64,000 nucleotides of DNA from an uncultured Alphaproteobacteria bacterium (GTDB lineage Bacteria > Pseudomonadota > Alphaproteobacteria > Rhizobiales > Xanthobacteraceae), in contig CAVVZW010000002.1 in NCBI GenBank assembly GCA_963752265.1, forward strand, positions 5,262-69,261, given 5' to 3'. A program made the translations under genes and the position numbers. Of the stretch, positions 35,420 through 44,043 are shown piece by piece. The notes beneath the pieces are model-generated. The model was not told the DNA's origin and ran no database searches. It saw only the letters and a list, made by a program, of their open reading frames with translations. Positions within the stretch are counted from its first letter, which is position 1, and each line of letters opens with the position of its first letter.

Positions 35420-36001
35420 CTAACGAAAATTCTGGTTCACCGACATCACGCGCCACGCTCCGTCCAGACGATCGATCCGTGTCATCGAGAGCGGATCAAC
35501 CGCAAACCGCAGCGCGGCCTGCGGCGCGAGTTCGAGCGCAATGCAGAGCATCGCGCGAATTGTTCCGGAATGGACCACCAGAATGGCCGAACCCGCCTCG
35601 ATCCGGCCGATGCCTTGCCGAACCCGGGCGACTTGATCTTCGAAGCTCTCCCCGCCCGGCGGGGTCGAGCGGGCTGGATCGCTCCAGAATTGTGCATAGG
35701 CTTGCCCGCCGCTGGCGGCCAGATCGTCGTGACGCCGGCCGGTCCAGTCACCGAAATCCTGCTCGGCAAACTCACCCATCAGCACGGGATCAAGCTGCAA
35801 GGCCTTTGCCGTATCGATCGTTCGCTGCGCCGGGCTTGCATAAGCCTTCGCGTCTTGCGGCAGACGCGCGCGCAAGAGATCGAACGAACCGCGATCCCTG
35901 AGATCGGCCGGAGCGCGCGGGCCCCAGATCGTTCCCTCTGTTCCCTTGGGACCGTCGACCGCTGCATGTCGTATGAGCCAAAAGGAGGTGGTTTCGCTCA
36001 T
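35420..36001 (-). CDS. Histidine phosphatase (CobC-like alpha-ribazole phosphatase candidate)
   Basis: LIRHA, SPAQR, EQDFGDW, PGGES, HSGTIR. Confidence 0.85.
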   Translation of the reverse strand: MSETTSFWLIRHAAVDGPKGTEGTIWGPRAPADLRDRGSFDLLRARLPQDAKAYASPAQRTIDTAKALQLDPVLMGEFAEQDFGDWTGRRHDDLAASGGQAYAQFWSDPARSTPPGGESFEDQVARVRQGIGRIEAGSAILVVHSGTIRAMLCIALELAPQAALRFAVDPLSMTRIDRLDGAWRVMSVNQNFR

Positions 36002-36020
36002 CTCGCGTACCTTTAGACTA

Positions 36021-36723
36021 TCAAACCGCTGACGCCACGTATCTACGCCAACCGTCGCTCCGCAAGCGGCAGGCATCGCAACTTCCGCAGCCAAACCCCC
36101 AATCGTGACGATGGCTCCGGTCGCCCTGATAGCAACTGTGCGTCTTGTCAATGATGAGATCGACGAGCGCGCGACCGCCGAGCTTGTTTGCAAGCTCCCA
36201 GGTCGCGGCCTTGTCGATCCACATCAGAGGCGTCTCGATCACAAGCCGCGCCTCCATGCCGAGATTGATCGCAACCTGAAGCGCCTTCACCGTGTCGTCG
36301 CGGCAATCGGGGTAGCCGGAGTAGTCTGTCTCGCAGACACCCGTGACGAGGTGCTTGATCTTGCGCTGATGGGCGACGATGGCCGCGAAGGTGAGGAACA
36401 ACAGATTTCTGCCGGGAACGAATGTCGCCGGCAATCCGTCGGCGCGCGTATCAAATGGCAAGTCCGCGGTGAGAGCACTAACGCTGACCTCGGCGAGAAC
36501 ACCGAGATCGATGAGATGATCCCGCCCGAGCTTCGCCTTCCATGCTGGCATGATCGCCTCCAGGCCCGCCCGCACAGGCATACGGCATTCCATCTCCACC
36601 AGATGACGTTGACCGTAGGTGAAGCCGATCGTTTCAACGTGGTCGTAGCGCGACAGCGCCCATGCGAGGCACGTCGTCGAAATCCTGGCCGCCGGAGAAA
36701 AGAACGAGCGCGCTTTCGGACAT
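36021..36723 (-). CDS. queC: 7-cyano-7-deazaguanine synthase; +1 frameshift near 36681
   Basis: LFSGGQD(STTC), [28 protein letters not shown]. Confidence 0.9.
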
Positions 36724-36731
36724 AAGGTTTC

Positions 36732-37091
36732 CTAATCACGCCCGTCATATTCCGCCCAGCAGTCAGGCGTCTCATAGACCTTCACCGCGGAAAGCTGCGG
36801 CAATCTGGTTTTGGTCCGGCTCCAGATCCAGATTGCGATATTCTCCGCCGTCGGATTTTCCAGCCCCTGGACCTCGTTCAGATAGTGATGATCCAGCGTT
36901 TTCAGCAAAGGCGCGAATGTCTCCTCGACATCGAAAAAATCCGCCACGAAGCCGGTGTTGATATCGACGGGACCGCTCAAGATGAGCTCGACCCGATAAG
37001 AATGCCCATGCATCCGGTGACATCGGTGCGTTTGGGGAACATTCGGCAGACGATGCGCCGCTTCGAAACGAAAGGCCTGGGATATTTTCAT
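36732..37091 (-). CDS. queD: 6-carboxy-5,6,7,8-tetrahydropterin synthase
   Basis: FEAAHRLP, CHRMHGHSY, LDHHYLN, PTAENIA, ETP. Confidence 0.95.
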   Translation of the reverse strand: MKISQAFRFEAAHRLPNVPQTHRCHRMHGHSYRVELILSGPVDINTGFVADFFDVEETFAPLLKTLDHHYLNEVQGLENPTAENIAIWIWSRTKTRLPQLSAVKVYETPDCWAEYDGRD

Positions 37092-37723
37092 CGGATGCCG
37101 AGATGCTTGTGGGTCTGGACGCTCAGGCGCCATTTCGGATGGGTCAGGCAGTATCCGATCGCATCGCGCGTGTGGGCGATAACGTCGGGACCGTCCATGG
37201 GCTGAAGAAGGAAGTTTTCAAACGCGAGATCCGCGAAGCGTTCGGGCAGCGCGTCGGCTTGCGGATAAACCAGCTTCAGTTCCTGGCCGTTCACGATCTC
37301 CAGCCGCGTGTTCGACTTGGGACTGACGCAAATCCAGTCGATGCCGTCAGGCGCAGGCAAGGTGCCATTGGTTTCGATGGCGATGCGAAAACCGCGACTG
37401 TGAAGCGCGCGCACAAGACCTTCGTCAACCTGCAGCAGGGGCTCTCCTCCTGTGAGCACGCAGAGGCGATTGGTTTGGCCGCCGGTCCATTCCCTCTCGA
37501 TCGCATCCGCAAGTTCATCGGCGTCGCGATATCGGCCACCTTTGGTGCCATTCGTTCCGACAAAGTCGGTGTCACAGAACGTGCAGACCGCGGCGCTTCG
37601 ATCGGTTTCCCGTCCGCTCCAGAGATTGCAGCCGGCAAATCGGCAGAACACCGCAGGGCAGCCCGCCTGCATGCCTTCGCCCTGCAGCGTCAGAAATATC
37701 TCCTTGACCGTGAAAGAGCCCAT
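37088..37723 (-). CDS. queE: 7-carboxy-7-deazaguanine synthase (radical SAM, Cx14CxxC type)
   Basis: TLQGEG, FCRFAGCNLW...CTFCDTDF, TGGEP, ETNG, LSVQTHK. Confidence 0.95.
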   Translation of the reverse strand: MGSFTVKEIFLTLQGEGMQAGCPAVFCRFAGCNLWSGRETDRSAAVCTFCDTDFVGTNGTKGGRYRDADELADAIEREWTGGQTNRLCVLTGGEPLLQVDEGLVRALHSRGFRIAIETNGTLPAPDGIDWICVSPKSNTRLEIVNGQELKLVYPQADALPERFADLAFENFLLQPMDGPDVIAHTRDAIGYCLTHPKWRLSVQTHKHLGIR

Positions 37724-37742
37724 CGGAACCTGATCGCATTTC

Positions 37743-37778
37743 ATTGGTGGGGTGATCGAAATTGGTGGGGTGATCGAA
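37743..37778. repeat. Perfect 18-bp tandem duplication
   Basis: ATTGGTGGGGTGATCGAA x2, just upstream of queE. Confidence 0.95.
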
Positions 37779-37978
37779 CGACGAGCCGTGCGACATGGTC
37801 TGTCGCCTGATCTCCCGTTCTCTGGCGCGGGACACCCTGCTAGCTATTTGCCAGCTGGGGAGCAACGGGAAAATGAACAGAAGACGCCGCGCCGGCATGG
37901 CCGAAACCCGCGTCCGCGATGATCGGCCATCAGGCGATTTCAGAACTCAGGACCTGACAGCTGTCAACGCGCCCAGCC

Positions 37979-39277
37979 TCACTTCGAGGTGAAGGCGTCA
38001 TAGACGAGTTTCCGGAACGCGACCCTGATGGGGCCACGCTCGTTATCGGTCTGTTCCATCAGCAGGTAAAACATGTCGAGCTTGCGGTCGATGCCAACAT
38101 AGGTGCCGCTTAAACTGTCCCACTTCAGCTCACCCATGGAGCCCGGCTGTCTGGTTTCTCCCGCGCTGGTGCGCACAGCAAAGCCATAGCCGTAACCGAA
38201 GCCATCGCCCGGGAAATAGAAATAATCGTGGCCGATGCCCGTGCCCGGACCGACATGGTCGGTCGTCATATCCTTGAACGCGGCCGGGCTGAGGTAACGC
38301 TTGCCTTCGAACGTACCGCCGTTCAGCAGCATTTGCGTGAAGCGTCCATAATCGACGATCGTCGAGACCAGCCCGCCACCACCGGATTCCCACTCGGGAT
38401 GGGACCTGCGCCTGCGCTCCTGATCGACGAGATTCACATCGCCTGGCAGTGGCTCCGCCATCAATGCACGCTCTTCGGGCGTATCCAGCACGAACTTCGT
38501 GTGTGTCATTCCAAGCGGATCGAAGATCGACCGCTTCATGAAGTGATAGAGTGTCTCGCCCGAGGCGACTTCGATGACGCGCCCAAGCACGTCTGCCGAA
38601 TGACCATAACGCCAGAACGTACCGGGTTGCCGCGTCAGCGGCAGTTTGCCAATCCGCTCGGCAAGATCCGCGTTGCTGAACTGCCCGTCGAAAAGATGAC
38701 CTCCATCATAAAGCTTTTCGACCCAGCCGCCGACGTAACCCCCGGCGATACCCGAGGTTTGCAGAAGCAGATCCCTGACCGTCGGTGGCCGCGCGGCAGG
38801 AACAAGCTCGAACGGCGGTTTGCCCTGCGCATCGGCTTGCTCCAGCGCCACCTTCGCATCCGCAAAGGACGGCACGTATTTCGCCACGGGATCATCGAGC
38901 GACAGTTTTCCGGCATCGACCAGCATCATCGCAGCTAAGCTCGTGATCGGCTTGGTCATCGAGCGAAGAGCAAAAATCGTATCCGCCGTCATCGGACGGC
39001 TGGTCCTGACGTCGCGCATCCCGAATGTCTTCTGGTAGACGGGCCGGCCATGCTGCTGGATCAGGACGATGGCGCCGGAGATCTTGCCCGTAGCAACCTC
39101 GTTTTCGAAGAAATCGCCAAGCAGCCGAAGCTTCTCGGCCGATGGCGCATTCGCTTCAGCCCCGCGGGCCTTTGTGCTGACATGCGCGCAACACAGCATC
39201 AAGCCAGCGATCAAAGCCCAGCGGCCGGCCGAGACTGTGCGCTGAGGGGGCAAGGCGAATCCTGCTGGCTGGGTCAT
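37979..39277 (-). CDS. Exported serine hydrolase (beta-lactamase/esterase family)
   Basis: SMTK (SxxK), WRYG, IFDPLGM, GGGGLVST; N-terminal signal-like segment. Confidence 0.9.
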   Translation of the reverse strand: MTQPAGFALPPQRTVSAGRWALIAGLMLCCAHVSTKARGAEANAPSAEKLRLLGDFFENEVATGKISGAIVLIQQHGRPVYQKTFGMRDVRTSRPMTADTIFALRSMTKPITSLAAMMLVDAGKLSLDDPVAKYVPSFADAKVALEQADAQGKPPFELVPAARPPTVRDLLLQTSGIAGGYVGGWVEKLYDGGHLFDGQFSNADLAERIGKLPLTRQPGTFWRYGHSADVLGRVIEVASGETLYHFMKRSIFDPLGMTHTKFVLDTPEERALMAEPLPGDVNLVDQERRRRSHPEWESGGGGLVSTIVDYGRFTQMLLNGGTFEGKRYLSPAAFKDMTTDHVGPGTGIGHDYFYFPGDGFGYGYGFAVRTSAGETRQPGSMGELKWDSLSGTYVGIDRKLDMFYLLMEQTDNERGPIRVAFRKLVYDAFTSK

Positions 39278-39438
39278 GGTGTGATGCCCTGTGTTCTGGC
39301 ATTTAATTGCGCTCAATAAAATTGGCCGTCGTCCCGAGATGACACATTGCGGCGAGCGCTTTTAGGAGTGCCAGTTGTGAAGGTCCTGATCGACCCGACA
39401 ATCGGCAAATTCGCGGGTGTAAAAGTGGTTCCTAATTA

Positions 39439-39450
39439 TGCAGTGCAGCA
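39439..39450 (+). promoter_or_regulatory. PhaR-like box
   Basis: TGCAGTGCAGCA, identical to 53652-53663; fits TGCRNYGCASMA. Confidence 0.5.
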
Positions 39451-39575
39451 AAACGGCCCCCCGCAACGGCTTGATATTAGATCACGGTAGCCTAGCGTAG
39501 CGAGCGTAGCTAAAAGCATGCGTCAGCGTCACGCCAATAAAAACCCAAGCTAAATAGGATTTCCGGAGGACGACC

Positions 39576-41468
39576 ATGAAGGAGCTTGTCAGGCAATACC
39601 TCAACAACGGCATTTCACGGCGCGACCTCATGCGCGGCCTCGGTGCCGCTGGACTGACCGCTTCCGCGGCCAAAACAATCGTCGAGTCGCTGGCCCCAAG
39701 CCCGGCGATGGCCGAACCAGCCAGCGGCGGGGCCGTCCGCCAGGTGACCGGCACCGGCGGAAAGCTCTATATCGAGCAGCTTAAGGCCGCCGGCACCGAA
39801 TTCATCTTTTTCAATCCATCGACGGGTGACGCTCCGATCTACGATGCGCTGGTCGACACACCGGAAATCCAGCTCATCAAAGGTGTTCAGGAAGGCGCCG
39901 TTGTTGCCATGGCCGACGGCTACGCGCGCCTCTCCGGCAAGATCGGTGTTGCCCAGATCGCCAATGTCGGCCTGCCCAGCGGCATGACACAGCTGGTCAA
40001 CAGCTGGAAAGATCGCATCCCTGTGCTGCTCACCGTCGCGGCATTCGGCACTGAGACCACCGGGCGCGACTGGCCGCAGGACTACGACCATCAGGAGCCG
40101 ATGGTCGCGCCCATCACCAAATCATTCTGGGTGGCCGAGAACACGGCCGGCATCGCCGACGTGACCCGGCGAACCCTGAAATTCGGCACCACCCCGCCGG
40201 TCGGCCCGGTCTTTCTCTCGATTCCCGACGACTTGCTGCGGGCGACCGCCACTGCCGATATTTACGATGGCCGGTTGTTCAACGTGGCGATGAAAATCCG
40301 CCCCGACCGCGACGATGTCGAAACCATCGCCAAGCGGCTGATCGAGGCGCGCAACCCGCTGATCACCGCAGGCGACGAAGTCACGCTGTGCCAGGCCGAA
40401 GCGGAAGTGGTCGAACTCGCCAACCTGCTCGGCATTCCCGTCACCACCATCGGCGGCTCGCTCGGCAACTGGTCCAAACCCTATCCGACCCGAGACCCGC
40501 AATTCGTGGGCAGCTTCGTCCCCGGCGGGCCCTTCTCCAGCCCTGTCGACGTCCACTTCAACGTCGGCAGTCAACTCGGCGAACAGCGCATGCCAAACGC
40601 CTTTGCCATTTCGATGCGAAACGACCCGGCGGGACTTGCGCGTTCGTGGCCGATCGACATGTCCGTCGTCGCGCACATCAAACTCGGACTTGCCGACATC
40701 ATCGCTGCCGTCAAAAGCATGGCGACCGCCGACCGCCTGAAGCAGATCGCCGACGCACGCTCCGTCCGGACCCGCGCCTACATCGCAGGCACCGCCAGGA
40801 TGCGCGCCGAGACCGTCAAAGATCTCGACAATGGCTCGTCGATCACCATGGAGCGTCTGGGCATCGAACTCGAGACTGCGCTCGACAGAGAAACCATCTT
40901 CGTGACGGATTGCGAGTCGGGCCGCATCATGGATTCCATGATGAATTTTGGTGGCACCGATAAAACCTTCGTCTCCACCAGCGCCAATATTCTCGGCTGG
41001 GCGCAAGCGGCGGCCATGGGCGCGCAACTCGCCCGCCCCAACCGCCCGGTTGTCTCCGCCATGGGAGACGGCAGCGCCATGTTCGGCGGCCCGCAACCGC
41101 TATGGAGCCAGGCGCGTTACAAGGCGCCGATCACCAACCTTGTCGTCAACAACCGCAGCTACAACAACGAGCGCAATCGCATCTGGAGTTTTACCGGCCC
41201 GCAGCAGTTCAATTCCGGCAAGGATATGACGTGCTACAATGGCAGTCCCGATGTGGATTTTGCCAAATCAGCCGCCGCCTATGGCGTCGAGGGCGAGACG
41301 GTCAGCGACCCCTCAAAGATTCAGGAGCACCTCGCCCGGGCCAAGCGCGCCAATATCGAGGGCCGCCCCTATCTGCTCGATATTCTCGTCGACCGCGCAG
41401 GCGTCGGCGCAGCCTCGGAATGGTATCCGCCATATTCGATCGCCGCCAAGCGTGTGAAGAAGGCTTGA
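39576..41468 (+). CDS. ThDP-dependent enzyme (benzoylformate decarboxylase/acetolactate synthase fold) with a Tat-type signal
   Basis: SRRDLM...AMA-EP; QEGAVVAMADGYAR; GDGSAMF...NNRSY. Confidence 0.9.
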   Translation: MKELVRQYLNNGISRRDLMRGLGAAGLTASAAKTIVESLAPSPAMAEPASGGAVRQVTGTGGKLYIEQLKAAGTEFIFFNPSTGDAPIYDALVDTPEIQLIKGVQEGAVVAMADGYARLSGKIGVAQIANVGLPSGMTQLVNSWKDRIPVLLTVAAFGTETTGRDWPQDYDHQEPMVAPITKSFWVAENTAGIADVTRRTLKFGTTPPVGPVFLSIPDDLLRATATADIYDGRLFNVAMKIRPDRDDVETIAKRLIEARNPLITAGDEVTLCQAEAEVVELANLLGIPVTTIGGSLGNWSKPYPTRDPQFVGSFVPGGPFSSPVDVHFNVGSQLGEQRMPNAFAISMRNDPAGLARSWPIDMSVVAHIKLGLADIIAAVKSMATADRLKQIADARSVRTRAYIAGTARMRAETVKDLDNGSSITMERLGIELETALDRETIFVTDCESGRIMDSMMNFGGTDKTFVSTSANILGWAQAAAMGAQLARPNRPVVSAMGDGSAMFGGPQPLWSQARYKAPITNLVVNNRSYNNERNRIWSFTGPQQFNSGKDMTCYNGSPDVDFAKSAAAYGVEGETVSDPSKIQEHLARAKRANIEGRPYLLDILVDRAGVGAASEWYPPYSIAAKRVKKA

Positions 41469-41470
41469 TC

Positions 41471-42013
41471 ATGCGAAGGTTCGTTCTGGCGGCCGCAAGT
41501 GTTCTGCTCGTTCTCCCGGTCCTTCTTTTGGGCTCTCTTGCAGAGGCCCAACAGACCAATCCATTCCCCCCTGGAGCGGGCCGTGACCTCATCGCCGTCG
41601 CCTGCACCCAGTGCCACAGGGCAGGGCCGATCATTCAATTGCGCATGGGCGAAGCAGGCTGGCGCCGGCAGGTCTACAACATGGTCTTGCGAGGCGCGCA
41701 GATCGGGCCGGACGAAATCGACGACGTCGTCAAATATCTCGCGACCAACTTCGGACCCGGTGTGCCGGTCCCCGGCGTAACACCGGCTCCCGTGAAATTG
41801 CCCGATGGTGCCGGGGCGGACCTCGTCACTGGGGCCTGCGGGGTCTGCCACGGCGTGGACCGAGTAATCGCCGTCGCGCGTCCGGGCCGGCAGTGGGAAG
41901 CGATCGTGCATCGCATGGTGGCCATCGGCGCGCCGGTCGATGCCGACCAGGCCAGGCAGATCATCTCCTATCTGGAAACGAATTACGGCGCGGCTCCGTC
42001 CAAAGCGCCGTAG
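41471..42013 (+). CDS. Exported dihaem cytochrome c
   Basis: Signal peptide ending AEA; two repeated domains with CTQCH and CGVCH and distal Met (NMV, RMV). Confidence 0.88.
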   Translation: MRRFVLAAASVLLVLPVLLLGSLAEAQQTNPFPPGAGRDLIAVACTQCHRAGPIIQLRMGEAGWRRQVYNMVLRGAQIGPDEIDDVVKYLATNFGPGVPVPGVTPAPVKLPDGAGADLVTGACGVCHGVDRVIAVARPGRQWEAIVHRMVAIGAPVDADQARQIISYLETNYGAAPSKAP

Positions 42014-42054: not shown

Positions 42055-42131
42055 TGGCGCACCCGACACGATTCGAACGTGTGACCTTTGCCTTCGGAGG
42101 GCAACGCTCTATCCAGCTGAGCTACGGGTGC
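42055..42131 (-). tRNA. tRNA-Arg(CCG)
   Basis: GCACCCGTAGCTCAGCTGGATAGAGCG TTGCC-CTCCGAA-GGCAA AGGTCACACGTTCGAATCGTGTCGGGTGCGCCA. Confidence 0.97.
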
Positions 42132-42336: not shown

Positions 42337-44043
42337 ATGGCGGATCGATCCAGCTCTTCGCAGCCTTCCACCGCTGACAAAGCGTGGCCGGTTTTTCGTT
42401 CGCTGGCCAACTACCGCTTCGCGTTCCTCAGCCGCGATTTGTTCGCCGGCCTGACGCTTGCGGCGATTGTCATTCCGGAGCAGATGGCAACCGCAAGCCT
42501 TGGCCACTTCGCCCCGCAGATCGGCTTTTTCGCTTTTGTGGCGGGCTCGCTCGCCTTTGCTGCGTTTGGCAGCAACCGCTTCCTGTCATCGGGCGCGGAT
42601 TCGACCATCACGCCGATCTTCGCCGGCGGGCTTGCCGCGCTCGCCGCCACGGGCTCACCAGATTACGCCACGCTCGCCGCGGCGCTGGCGCTGATGGTCG
42701 GGCTGATGCTGACGGCCGCCGGCATTTTTCGCCTGGGGTGGATCGCCGACCTGTTGTCAGTCCCCGTCACGATCGGCTTTCTCGCCGGCATTTCGGTGCA
42801 CATCCTGATCTCCCAGTTGCCGGGAATCCTCGGGCTTCCGGCGAGCGAAGGGCACATGCTCCAGCGCTTCGCGACGCTGGCCGAACATCTTGGCGAAGCC
42901 AACGGCTTTACGATCGTCATTGGTCTGGGCGTACTCGCCATCATCATGCTATCCGAGCAGATCGACGCGCGGATCCCCGGTGCCTTGATCGGCCTTGCGT
43001 TAGCGGCGGCAGCTGTTGTGCTTCTTCATCTTGAAGATCGTGGCGTCAGCGTGCTCGGCAGCATTTCGGTTGAGATGCCGAAGCTCGCCATTCCCGTCGT
43101 GTCCGCCAGACAGCTCACCAGCCTGCTGTCGCTCGGCCTCATCATTTCGGTCGTCGTCATGGTGCAGACGGCCGCGACCACCCGATCCTTTCCAACCGAT
43201 CCCAATGAGCCGCCGGACGTCAACCGCGATTTCATAGGCATCGGCACTGGCAGCATCTTTGCCGGGGTGATCGGAGCTTTTCCCGTCAATGCGAGTCCGC
43301 CGCGAACCGCGGTGGTTTCCGAAACCGGTGGCCGCTCCCAGATCGCTAGCGTGGCCGCAGTTGCGATCGTCGTCCTGCTGCTTGCCTTCGGAACATCGCT
43401 GCTGCACCGGATTCCGAATGCCGCCCTTGGCGGGGTTCTGTTGTTCGTTGCGCTTCGCATCATTCGCCTTCGCCAGATCGTTGCCGTTGCGCGTCAATCG
43501 CTCGGCGAATTCCTCCTGATCCTGGTGACGGCGGCCGGCATCATCGTGCTGCCGATCGAGCAGGGCGTGGGACTGGGCATCGCATTGTCGCTGCTGCACG
43601 GCATCTGGACCACGACGCGCGCCCGCGTGCGGCCGCTCGAACGCGTTCCCGGCACCTCCATCTGGTGGCCCGTGAGTCCCAATCTGCCAGGCGAGCAGGA
43701 AGCCGGCGTGATCGTCGCGGGATTTCCCGCGCCACTGTCGTTCCTCAATGCCTATGACTTCCGGCGCGATATCCTGGCCGCAATGAACGCTTCATCGCAG
43801 AAAGTGCGGCTGGTGGTGCTGGAGGCGACCGGCATAGTCGAGATTGACTTTACGGCGGCGCAGGTCCTGGCCGACGTCATCCGTCAATGCCACGCGGACG
43901 GCATCGACTTTGCGCTCGCCCGGCTCGAATCGGACCGCGCGCAGAACGCGATCGTGCGCTTCGGCATCGCTACAATACTCGGTCCCGACCGCCAGTTTCA
44001 CAGCGTTGAGGAAGCAATTCGCGCCCGCGCCGGAAAGAAATAA
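42337..44043 (+). CDS. SulP family anion transporter with STAS domain
   Basis: RDLFAGLTLAAIVIPE, GADST, ASPPRT, EIDFTA. Confidence 0.92.
   Translation: MADRSSSSQPSTADKAWPVFRSLANYRFAFLSRDLFAGLTLAAIVIPEQMATASLGHFAPQIGFFAFVAGSLAFAAFGSNRFLSSGADSTITPIFAGGLAALAATGSPDYATLAAALALMVGLMLTAAGIFRLGWIADLLSVPVTIGFLAGISVHILISQLPGILGLPASEGHMLQRFATLAEHLGEANGFTIVIGLGVLAIIMLSEQIDARIPGALIGLALAAAAVVLLHLEDRGVSVLGSISVEMPKLAIPVVSARQLTSLLSLGLIISVVVMVQTAATTRSFPTDPNEPPDVNRDFIGIGTGSIFAGVIGAFPVNASPPRTAVVSETGGRSQIASVAAVAIVVLLLAFGTSLLHRIPNAALGGVLLFVALRIIRLRQIVAVARQSLGEFLLILVTAAGIIVLPIEQGVGLGIALSLLHGIWTTTRARVRPLERVPGTSIWWPVSPNLPGEQEAGVIVAGFPAPLSFLNAYDFRRDILAAMNASSQKVRLVVLEATGIVEIDFTAAQVLADVIRQCHADGIDFALARLESDRAQNAIVRFGIATILGPDRQFHSVEEAIRARAGKK

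Follow-up and report, generated by a model that had tools for sequence, protein, structure and literature searches.

This report describes a pair of adjacent genes in a 64,000-nucleotide stretch of DNA (the window) from contig CAVVZW010000002.1 of an uncultured alphaproteobacterium of the Xanthobacteraceae. The first gene (39576-41468, plus strand), read from its open reading frame (ORF) and translation, encodes the 630-aa precursor of a thiamine diphosphate (ThDP)-dependent enzyme. The second (41471-42013, plus strand), read from its translation and Pfam, encodes a 180-aa dihaem cytochrome c. The two genes are closely packed, as the ATG of the cytochrome gene at 41471 is 2 bp past the TGA of the enzyme gene (41466-41468), and a ribosome-binding site, GGAGGA, stands ahead of the enzyme gene at 39565-39570. 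An earlier note on this DNA had described the pair as a candidate exported ThDP enzyme and its cytochrome, and the sequence features that it listed for both proteins are all present where it had placed them.

The enzyme is a ThDP-dependent member of the decarboxylase-like superfamily that includes pyruvate oxidase (POX), acetolactate synthase (ALS) and benzoylformate decarboxylase (BFD), with the domains, the catalytic Glu and the GDG...NN motif all in place. Three Pfam domains score above their cut-offs: TPP_enzyme_N (PF02776, residues 60-173), TPP_enzyme_M (PF00205, residues 248-373) and TPP_enzyme_C (PF02775, residues 455-603). On the plus strand these correspond to the PYR or N-terminal ThDP domain at 39753-40094, the middle domain at 40317-40694 and the PP or C-terminal ThDP domain at 40938-41384. 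The cofactor-activating Glu is E106 (39891-39893), which lies within QEGAVVAMADGYAR, while the GDG is found at residues 497-499 (41064-41072) and the NN at residues 525-526 (41148-41153). E106, D498, G499 and N526 are invariant in an alignment of 50 sequences that extends down to 25% identity. The AlphaFold2 model of the enzyme has a mean predicted local distance difference test (pLDDT) score of 90.6 and its best Foldseek matches, among those listed, are all ThDP enzymes with a probability of 1.00.

No curated NCBIfam model reached its cut-off for the window enzyme or for four divergent representatives that carry the same N-terminal signal. The best model for the window enzyme was NF006203 (204.9 bits, cut-off 456), and the benzoylformate decarboxylase model NF005485 (181.8 bits, cut-off 493), the acetolactate synthase model TIGR00118 (159.5 bits, cut-off 538) and the sulfoacetaldehyde acetyltransferase (Xsc) model TIGR03457 (136 bits, cut-off 676.4) were also missed. 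An exact-sequence look-up of the 630-aa enzyme returned no record.

The N-terminal extension of the enzyme (residues 1-46; 39576-39713, plus strand) is read as a twin-arginine translocation (Tat) signal peptide from its motif, its homologues and their tree. It consists of an n-region, MKELVRQYLNNGI, the motif SRRDLM at residues 14-19 (39615-39632), an uncharged h-region of 12 residues, and K33. The stretch SRRDLMR (residues 14-20) followed by GLGAAGLTASAA satisfies the Tat consensus, which is S/T-R-R-x-F-L-K close to the N-terminus with a mildly hydrophobic h-region and an AxA site. The earlier note had named SRRDLM, an h-region and an AMA-E cleavage site. The first two are borne out, and the AMA-E site (residues 44-46) turns out to be one of two places where signal peptidase could cleave, the other being ASA-A at residues 30-32. 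The strict pattern S-R-R-x-[FLVIM]-[LIVMFK] is found in 104 of 114 full-length homologues (at least 59% identity) and is specific to one clade; the earlier note had singled out conservation of the two arginines beforehand as a point on which its reading could fail. In a wider homologue search, which covered 1.84 billion representatives of 50%-identity clusters, relatives of ~630 aa retain the whole extension, M(K/R)(E/D)L...YL...SRRxF, down to 28% identity, and relatives of ~555 aa begin at the would-be start of the mature enzyme and have no extension. In a FastTree phylogeny of 100 representatives, 32 of the 33 proteins bearing the motif form one clade (Shimodaira-Hasegawa-like support 100) that is apart from the 63 signal-less proteins. 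The clade also contains four motif-less proteins that look like truncated gene calls or losses, and the lone motif match outside it is an internal SRRPAV, a false positive. Because the signal-bearing proteins form a single, well-supported clade, the extension has arisen once and been retained thereafter. The source genome contains tatC, and on these comparisons the enzyme would be exported to the periplasm by the Tat pathway.

The signal-bearing proteins are also distinguished at the other end. Residues 605-630 make up a conserved C-terminal tail, VDRAGVGAASEWYPPYSIAAKRVKKA (41388-41465, plus strand), that was recognized in alignments with signal-bearing and signal-less relatives. The signal-bearing representatives align as far as query residues 622-629 and most signal-less relatives end at 603-612. 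Within the tail G609, P618, S621 and A623 are invariant. The tail may act as an active-site lid or as an element for docking the cytochrome.

The cytochrome has a Sec-type signal at 41471-41548 that ends in AEA-QQ. Its two haem motifs are CTQCH (41603-41617), which is paired with M71, and CGVCH (41837-41851), which is paired with M149, so that a Met follows ~22 residues past each motif. Across 15 orthologues neither the two CxxCH motifs nor the two Met residues vary. The protein matches the Pfam family Dehyd-heme_bind (PF09098), the haem-binding domain of the alpha subunit of quinohaemoprotein amine dehydrogenase, with 39.7 bits (cut-off 25.2). Its best NCBIfam model is SorB, which matches two stretches of the protein with 63.9 bits and remains under the cut-off of 93, and the QH_alpha model is likewise under its cut-off (45.5 bits, cut-off 274). 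A profile search of solved structures found the haem domains of quinohaemoprotein amine dehydrogenase and SorB as its relatives. Cytochromes of the SorB and quinohaemoprotein amine dehydrogenase classes are dedicated acceptor subunits of periplasmic dehydrogenases.

The enzyme and cytochrome genes are inherited together. In a first set of 21 loci, the ORF of a CxxCH cytochrome starts between -4 and +19 bp from the stop codon of the ThDP enzyme gene in 19; one of the other two has an apparent frameshift and one could not be resolved. A dihaem cytochrome is encoded directly downstream in seven of eight further genomes sampled from the same family, and a homologue of only 32% identity, which lies beside a gene for a TonB-dependent receptor, is also followed by a cytochrome gene. 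Contigs L026 and L027 end soon after the enzyme gene, and the downstream content is not readable there. The pairwise identities of the enzymes and of the cytochromes are correlated with r = 0.92 over 24 intact pairs, and none of 2000 Mantel permutations gave a value as high. This co-divergence shows inheritance as a unit and is not evidence of binding. The joint conservation that the earlier note expected of the two genes is therefore found, and the recurrence of the RR motif and of the adjacent cytochrome at many independent loci places both, as features of the sequences, beyond chance.

A complex of the two proteins, which the earlier note had suggested modelling, was predicted for a single chain of the mature enzyme, the cytochrome in its mature form and two haems. 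The prediction scored 0.40 (runs of 0.60, 0.40 and 0.35) and the best of three controls scored 0.00. The runs share at least 61% of their contacts, with a partner pLDDT of at least 81. In the calibration 58 of 80 solved complexes passed the mark, as did 2 of 110 mismatched pairs, and at scores of 0.60 or under it was reached by only 7 of the 80 solved complexes, along with both of the passing mismatches. These counts are only approximate for the present case, as alignments of our own and haem ligands were used in the prediction. The model lends weak support to an enzyme-cytochrome complex.

Alignment with benzoylformate decarboxylase demonstrates how far the active site has changed. As the earlier note had proposed, the benzoylformate decarboxylase loops, on which S26 and H70 are located, are replaced: in the HMMER alignment FNPSTGD (39810-39830) aligns with GNPGSNE, and QIAN (39954-39965) aligns with the NLH position. 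Residues S26, H70 and H281 of benzoylformate decarboxylase correspond to T83, N130 and D307 of the window enzyme. The hydrophobic L109 and L110 correspond to an invariant polar segment, PQDYDHQE, and A460 and L461 correspond to N531 and E532 in the invariant sequence YNNERNRIW (41160-41186), which is clade-specific and includes a seven-residue insertion relative to acetolactate synthase. As a result of these replacements, the pocket is distinct from, and more polar than, that of benzoylformate decarboxylase. E532 lies as far from the NN motif as the catalytic Glu does in pyruvate decarboxylases, which is a lead only.

Whether the enzyme binds flavin adenine dinucleotide (FAD) was addressed by aligning the clade with a genuine acetolactate synthase (806.9 bits to TIGR00118) that is encoded in a same-genus genome. 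Three motifs of the middle domain of the FAD-dependent members (acetolactate synthase, pyruvate oxidase, glyoxylate carboligase and cyclohexane-1,2-dione hydrolase), namely the GGG loop (GxG after the first strand), RFDDR and the ribose-binding Asp of (H)IDID, are taken by us to line the FAD. In the window enzyme the GGG loop reads GDE (40371-40379), RFDDR falls in a deletion and MRND takes the place of DID, and the enzyme accordingly lacks FAD motifs of the acetolactate synthase type. Across the family G266 and D267 do not vary, and the conservation of E268 is at least 90%. When the middle domain was compared alone, BbmA and benzoylformate decarboxylase were the nearest solved structures. Foldseek matched flavin-free and flavin-containing ThDP enzymes about equally, so the fold alone cannot settle the question. 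The family alignment contains no invariant Cys, and an iron-sulfur site is therefore unlikely. Judged from these motifs, the enzyme is quite probably flavin-free. The earlier note had asked for this look at the FAD site, and the outcome fits its suggestion that the electrons of the enamine pass to cytochrome c.

With a slight preference, we interpret the gene pair as encoding a ThDP-dependent dehydrogenase that works in the periplasm without flavin and has its own cytochrome c as the electron acceptor. The enzyme would fold and load ThDP and Mg2+ in the cytoplasm, where it is probably dimeric because ThDP sites lie at dimer interfaces. The Tat pathway would then carry the folded enzyme out by means of its SRRxLM signal, and the cytochrome would leave unfolded via Sec and have its two haems attached in the periplasm. 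There the enzyme would make a ThDP-bound enamine, either from a 2-oxo acid by decarboxylation or from an aldehyde by addition and deprotonation. The His/Met haems of the partner would oxidize the enamine in two one-electron steps, the acyl-ThDP would be hydrolysed to a carboxylic acid, and the reduced cytochrome would hand its electrons to the respiratory chain. Both comparative tests that the earlier note had named came out in its favour, and its periplasmic oxidative enzyme is partly supported; export, binding to the cytochrome in a complex, oxidative turnover, direct transfer from enamine to haem and the class of substrate are what we infer.

Several observations weigh against this interpretation. 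We know of no precedent in which a buried ThDP passes electrons directly to a haem that another subunit carries, and the modelled complex, as described, gives the weak support noted above. The case for an absence of FAD is argued from motifs that we only presume to be FAD contacts. A signal-bearing paralogue of 35% identity (L036) has no adjacent cytochrome gene. The extension itself is unusual for a signal peptide: its uncharged h-region has only 12 residues, its n-region, M(K/R)(E/D)L..(Q/K)YL(D/N)..(I/L)SRR (39576-39632; homologues P0125-P0190), is unusually conserved, to 28% identity, and the model gives the extension helices at residues 2-9, 15-24 and 29-39 with good confidence (pLDDT 82-87). 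Both the conservation and the model suggest that the n-region may be recognized by a dedicated Tat chaperone or may have another or second role. In addition, a subclade with SRG in place of SRR (ISRGxLLQGL; P0079, P0096, P0103, P0114, P0120 and P0123) keeps the cytochrome, as at locus L046 (5001-7443), where an SRG-type enzyme gene is followed by a dihaem cytochrome gene 10 bp downstream.

These peculiarities of the extension (the short h-region, the over-conserved n-region, the predicted helices and the SRG subclade) would be explained if it were not a working Tat signal and instead served as a docking or regulatory helix on an enzyme that remains in the cytoplasm or on the inner side of the membrane. 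We consider this very unlikely, as S-R-R-x-L/F-M/L-K/R with its hydrophobic stretch and AxA agrees with the Tat consensus position by position and is clade-specific, and as the protein inherited with the enzyme is an exported cytochrome of the c type, whose maturation takes place only outside the cytoplasm. The enzyme could also be exported and not carry out an oxidation. It would then be a ThDP lyase, decarboxylase or carboligase, and the adjoining cytochrome would serve another process, or a regulatory or structural one alone. The closest solved relatives by sequence and fold are indeed non-redox enzymes (among them BbmA HKA synthase, benzoylformate and 4-hydroxybenzoylformate decarboxylases, benzaldehyde lyase and glyoxylate carboligase), and both the missing FAD motifs and the weak complex prediction suit such an enzyme. 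This explanation is unlikely in our view, given that the spacing of -4 to +19 bp and the strict co-occurrence hold over 32%-96% identity and that the co-divergence of the two proteins, with all other neighbours variable, is hard to explain without a shared function. Furthermore, we know of no role for a cytochrome c besides electron transfer.

If the enzyme is oxidative, the electrons may still not pass directly from ThDP to haem. In a pyruvate-oxidase-like flavoenzyme exported with both ThDP and FAD, they would travel from ThDP to FAD and on to haem c, as in flavocytochromes c. Flavin mediation is the known route in PoxB and in the flavocytochrome c dehydrogenases, the mature length of the window enzyme (~584 aa) is near that of the FAD-binding members, and the Foldseek template-modelling scores, normalized by query length, are 0.75-0.76 to glyoxylate carboligase as against 0.70-0.73 to benzoylformate decarboxylase. 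The loss of all three acetolactate synthase motifs (GGG to GDE, RFDDR deleted, DID to MRND) makes this route quite unlikely, as does the middle-domain sequence, which is nearest to BbmA and the flavin-free benzoylformate decarboxylase; moreover, the invariance of G266 and D267 would put an acidic residue where the phosphates of the dinucleotide would sit. The SorB-like character of the cytochrome raises a different prospect, that of a periplasmic Xsc-like desulfonating enzyme acting on a sulfonated carbonyl, with the cytochrome tied to sulfite oxidation. Apart from the best NCBIfam match of the cytochrome, which is SorB, this draws on SsuA-like binding proteins downstream in six loci, a TauD directly upstream in one locus, a SulP permease nearby in the window and weak matches of the enzyme to Xsc models. 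The bit score of 136 against a cut-off of 676 speaks against it, the SsuA matches are below cut-off, SulP shows no co-conservation with the pair and lies beyond a tRNA gene, and no locus that was read has an adjacent SorA-type molybdoenzyme. Xsc chemistry is also an internal redox reaction that needs no electron acceptor, and we judge this function to be highly improbable.

The surroundings of the two genes indicate that they move together. The source genome is Bradyrhizobium-like, and the loci closest to the window are from Bradyrhizobium metagenome-assembled genomes (MAGs) and strain dw_411, with 90-96% protein identity; Bradyrhizobium sp. dw_411 (locus L004) is a cultured carrier and its enzyme is 91% identical. 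Upstream of the enzyme gene, a conserved leader (39469-39575, plus strand) was identified by alignment across Bradyrhizobium loci. Seven of these loci can be aligned only from GCTTGATATTAGATC, ~107 bp 5' of the enzyme ATG, and nothing aligns farther upstream. Six close Bradyrhizobium loci have in common only the leader of ~110 bp, the enzyme gene and the cytochrome gene, and their flanks vary. By this comparison the enzyme and cytochrome genes are a separate two-gene cassette with its own leader, and the differing flanks among close relatives fit a recent gain of the cassette. Sampling 200 genomes from the same family revealed the enzyme in 11, and it was not found in 5 same-genus genomes or in 400 genomes sampled across the phylum (E <= 1e-60). 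It is single-copy in the source genome, which is 84% complete. This patchy occurrence marks the pair as an accessory module.

Within the leader, CTTGAT followed ~17 nt later by CTAGCG is a possible alphaproteobacterial promoter of the enzyme gene; a generic sigma-70 promoter scan gave no match. A riboswitch or other structured leader was considered and dropped, as the leader has no Rfam match at E values up to 1 and no covariation that would point to a structured RNA. An FNR/FixK or CRP box at TTGATATTAGATCA was ruled out by eye because the spacing of the half-sites is one base over. Downstream, a tRNA-Arg(CCG) gene (42055-42131, minus strand) lies between the cytochrome gene and a gene for a SulP permease. 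The 624-aa SulP ORF, listed from 42169, runs over the tRNA gene; translation probably begins at ATG 42337 (MADRSS...), where SulP has a ribosome-binding site of its own. SulP was rejected as an operon member on account of the intervening tRNA gene, its own start near 42337 and its absence near the pair at other loci. The G+C content is ~0.595 at 36000-40000 of the window, which covers the hydrolase gene described below and the start of the cassette, and ~0.63-0.65 in the stretch ahead of it (24-36 kb of the window). Damaged copies of the pair were also seen. At locus L016 (6168-8651, a Bradyrhizobium MAG) both genes are fragmented by several frame breaks, through either decay or assembly error, and loci L015 and L035 have single frame breaks each.

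The earlier note had suggested that a neighbouring serine hydrolase might supply the substrate. This protein (37979-39316, minus strand) is exported and has a beta-lactamase fold, and its best NCBIfam model is AcmB, a methyl acetate hydrolase (169.7 bits, cut-off 550). The suggestion was rejected: by tblastn the hydrolase gene is near the pair only in L003 (~3 kb off), that is in one of six close Bradyrhizobium loci, and at no distant locus, so it is not co-conserved with the pair. Other genes recur at other loci. An Amidohydro_2 protein is encoded near the pair in 12 of 28 loci and a 415-aa cytoplasmic VOC protein resembling extradiol dioxygenases in 10 of 28; MFS transporters also recur, and SsuA-like binding proteins, with matches under their cut-off, are found downstream in six loci. 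In the source genome the Amidohydro_2 gene is represented by a copy of 95% identity on a different contig, and no VOC homologue was found in this genome. These neighbours hint at aromatic or phenolic catabolism. As a guess, the pattern is compatible with the periplasmic oxidation of an aromatic-derived oxo acid or aldehyde to an acid that would then be imported, decarboxylated and ring-cleaved.

Two further features of these loci were observed. Loci L009, L010, L012 and L015 (for example L012 4115-4513, minus strand) encode a small conserved protein of 132-152 aa, MPFDGRDYS...RWCKGALYTVDGRRCILGA, which has no Pfam or NCBIfam match; in Stellaceae loci its gene adjoins the Amidohydro_2 gene that precedes the pair. 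At the locus of the signal-bearing paralogue (L036 355-7920, minus strand, in a same-family genome), the gene of the paralogue, whose motif is SRRNFV, is followed by genes for an IclR regulator, a molybdopterin subunit resembling pyrogallol hydroxytransferase (1015 aa), a 4Fe-4S subunit and a DoxX protein.

ThDP enzymes are textbook catalysts of the cytoplasm and of organelles, and the acceptors of the oxidative members are FAD, lipoamide and iron-sulfur clusters. Tentatively, and with rather less assurance than an even chance would give, we suggest that the pair represents a new class of respiratory dehydrogenase, in which the enamine of a Tat-exported ThDP enzyme is oxidized directly by the haems of a dedicated periplasmic cytochrome c and neither flavin nor iron-sulfur clusters take part. 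If this is true, haem c would join the known acceptors of ThDP enzymes and the periplasm would join their known locations. ThDP would be shown to cross a membrane inside a folded protein, and soil bacteria would have a further way to fuel respiration, with electrons drawn from oxo acids or aldehydes that need not be imported. Neither an exported ThDP enzyme nor a characterized member of the clade was found in full-text searches of open-access papers, in agreement with the remark in the earlier note that it knew of no characterized example. As the clade was found to have neither a curated model nor a characterized member, one biochemical study would annotate many genes.

The window enzyme has the same three-domain ThDP fold as benzoylformate decarboxylase (MdlC, 1bfd), the 4-hydroxybenzoylformate decarboxylases (6qsi, 7orx) and BbmA HKA synthase (8x3x). 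BbmA (E ~1e-41) and benzoylformate decarboxylase (~1e-32) are its best sequence matches among solved structures, and a middle domain that has no FAD motifs is common to the window enzyme and benzoylformate decarboxylase. Unlike the window enzyme, these proteins are cytoplasmic and non-redox and have neither a signal peptide nor a cytochrome partner. The window enzyme is not a benzoylformate decarboxylase (EC 4.1.1.7), as the catalytic S26, H70 and H281 are replaced and the cut-off of the corresponding model is missed. The pyruvate oxidases, such as E. coli PoxB (a pyruvate:quinone oxidoreductase) and Lactobacillus plantarum POX, belong to the same superfamily, and 2ez4 is among the Foldseek matches. 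Their reaction, in which a ThDP enamine is oxidized and an external acceptor takes up the two electrons, is the chemistry proposed for the window enzyme. PoxB and POX are located in the cytoplasm or peripherally on the inner side of the membrane, with FAD as the mediator and quinone or O2 as the acceptor, whereas the window enzyme has no FAD motifs, carries a Tat signal and has haem c as its proposed acceptor.

The pyruvate:ferredoxin and 2-oxoacid:ferredoxin oxidoreductases carry out flavin-free, one-electron oxidation of a ThDP enamine and are in mechanism the closest precedent for passing electrons directly to a metal centre. They differ from the window enzyme in that they belong to another fold family, use [4Fe-4S] clusters and coenzyme A, and are cytoplasmic. 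PaoABC of E. coli is exported by the Tat pathway and oxidizes aldehydes in the periplasm, and aldehydes are one of the two substrate classes proposed for the window enzyme; PaoABC is an enzyme with molybdenum, FAD and iron-sulfur clusters and has no sequence relation to it. The logic of the gene pair is the same as that of SorAB sulfite dehydrogenase, flavocytochrome c sulfide dehydrogenase, p-cresol methylhydroxylase and quinohaemoprotein amine dehydrogenase, in which a cofactor-loaded catalytic subunit is combined with a small c-type cytochrome. SorB has one haem and the window cytochrome has two, and in these two-subunit periplasmic dehydrogenases the catalytic cofactor is molybdenum, FAD or a quinone and never ThDP, which is the cofactor of the catalytic subunit proposed here.

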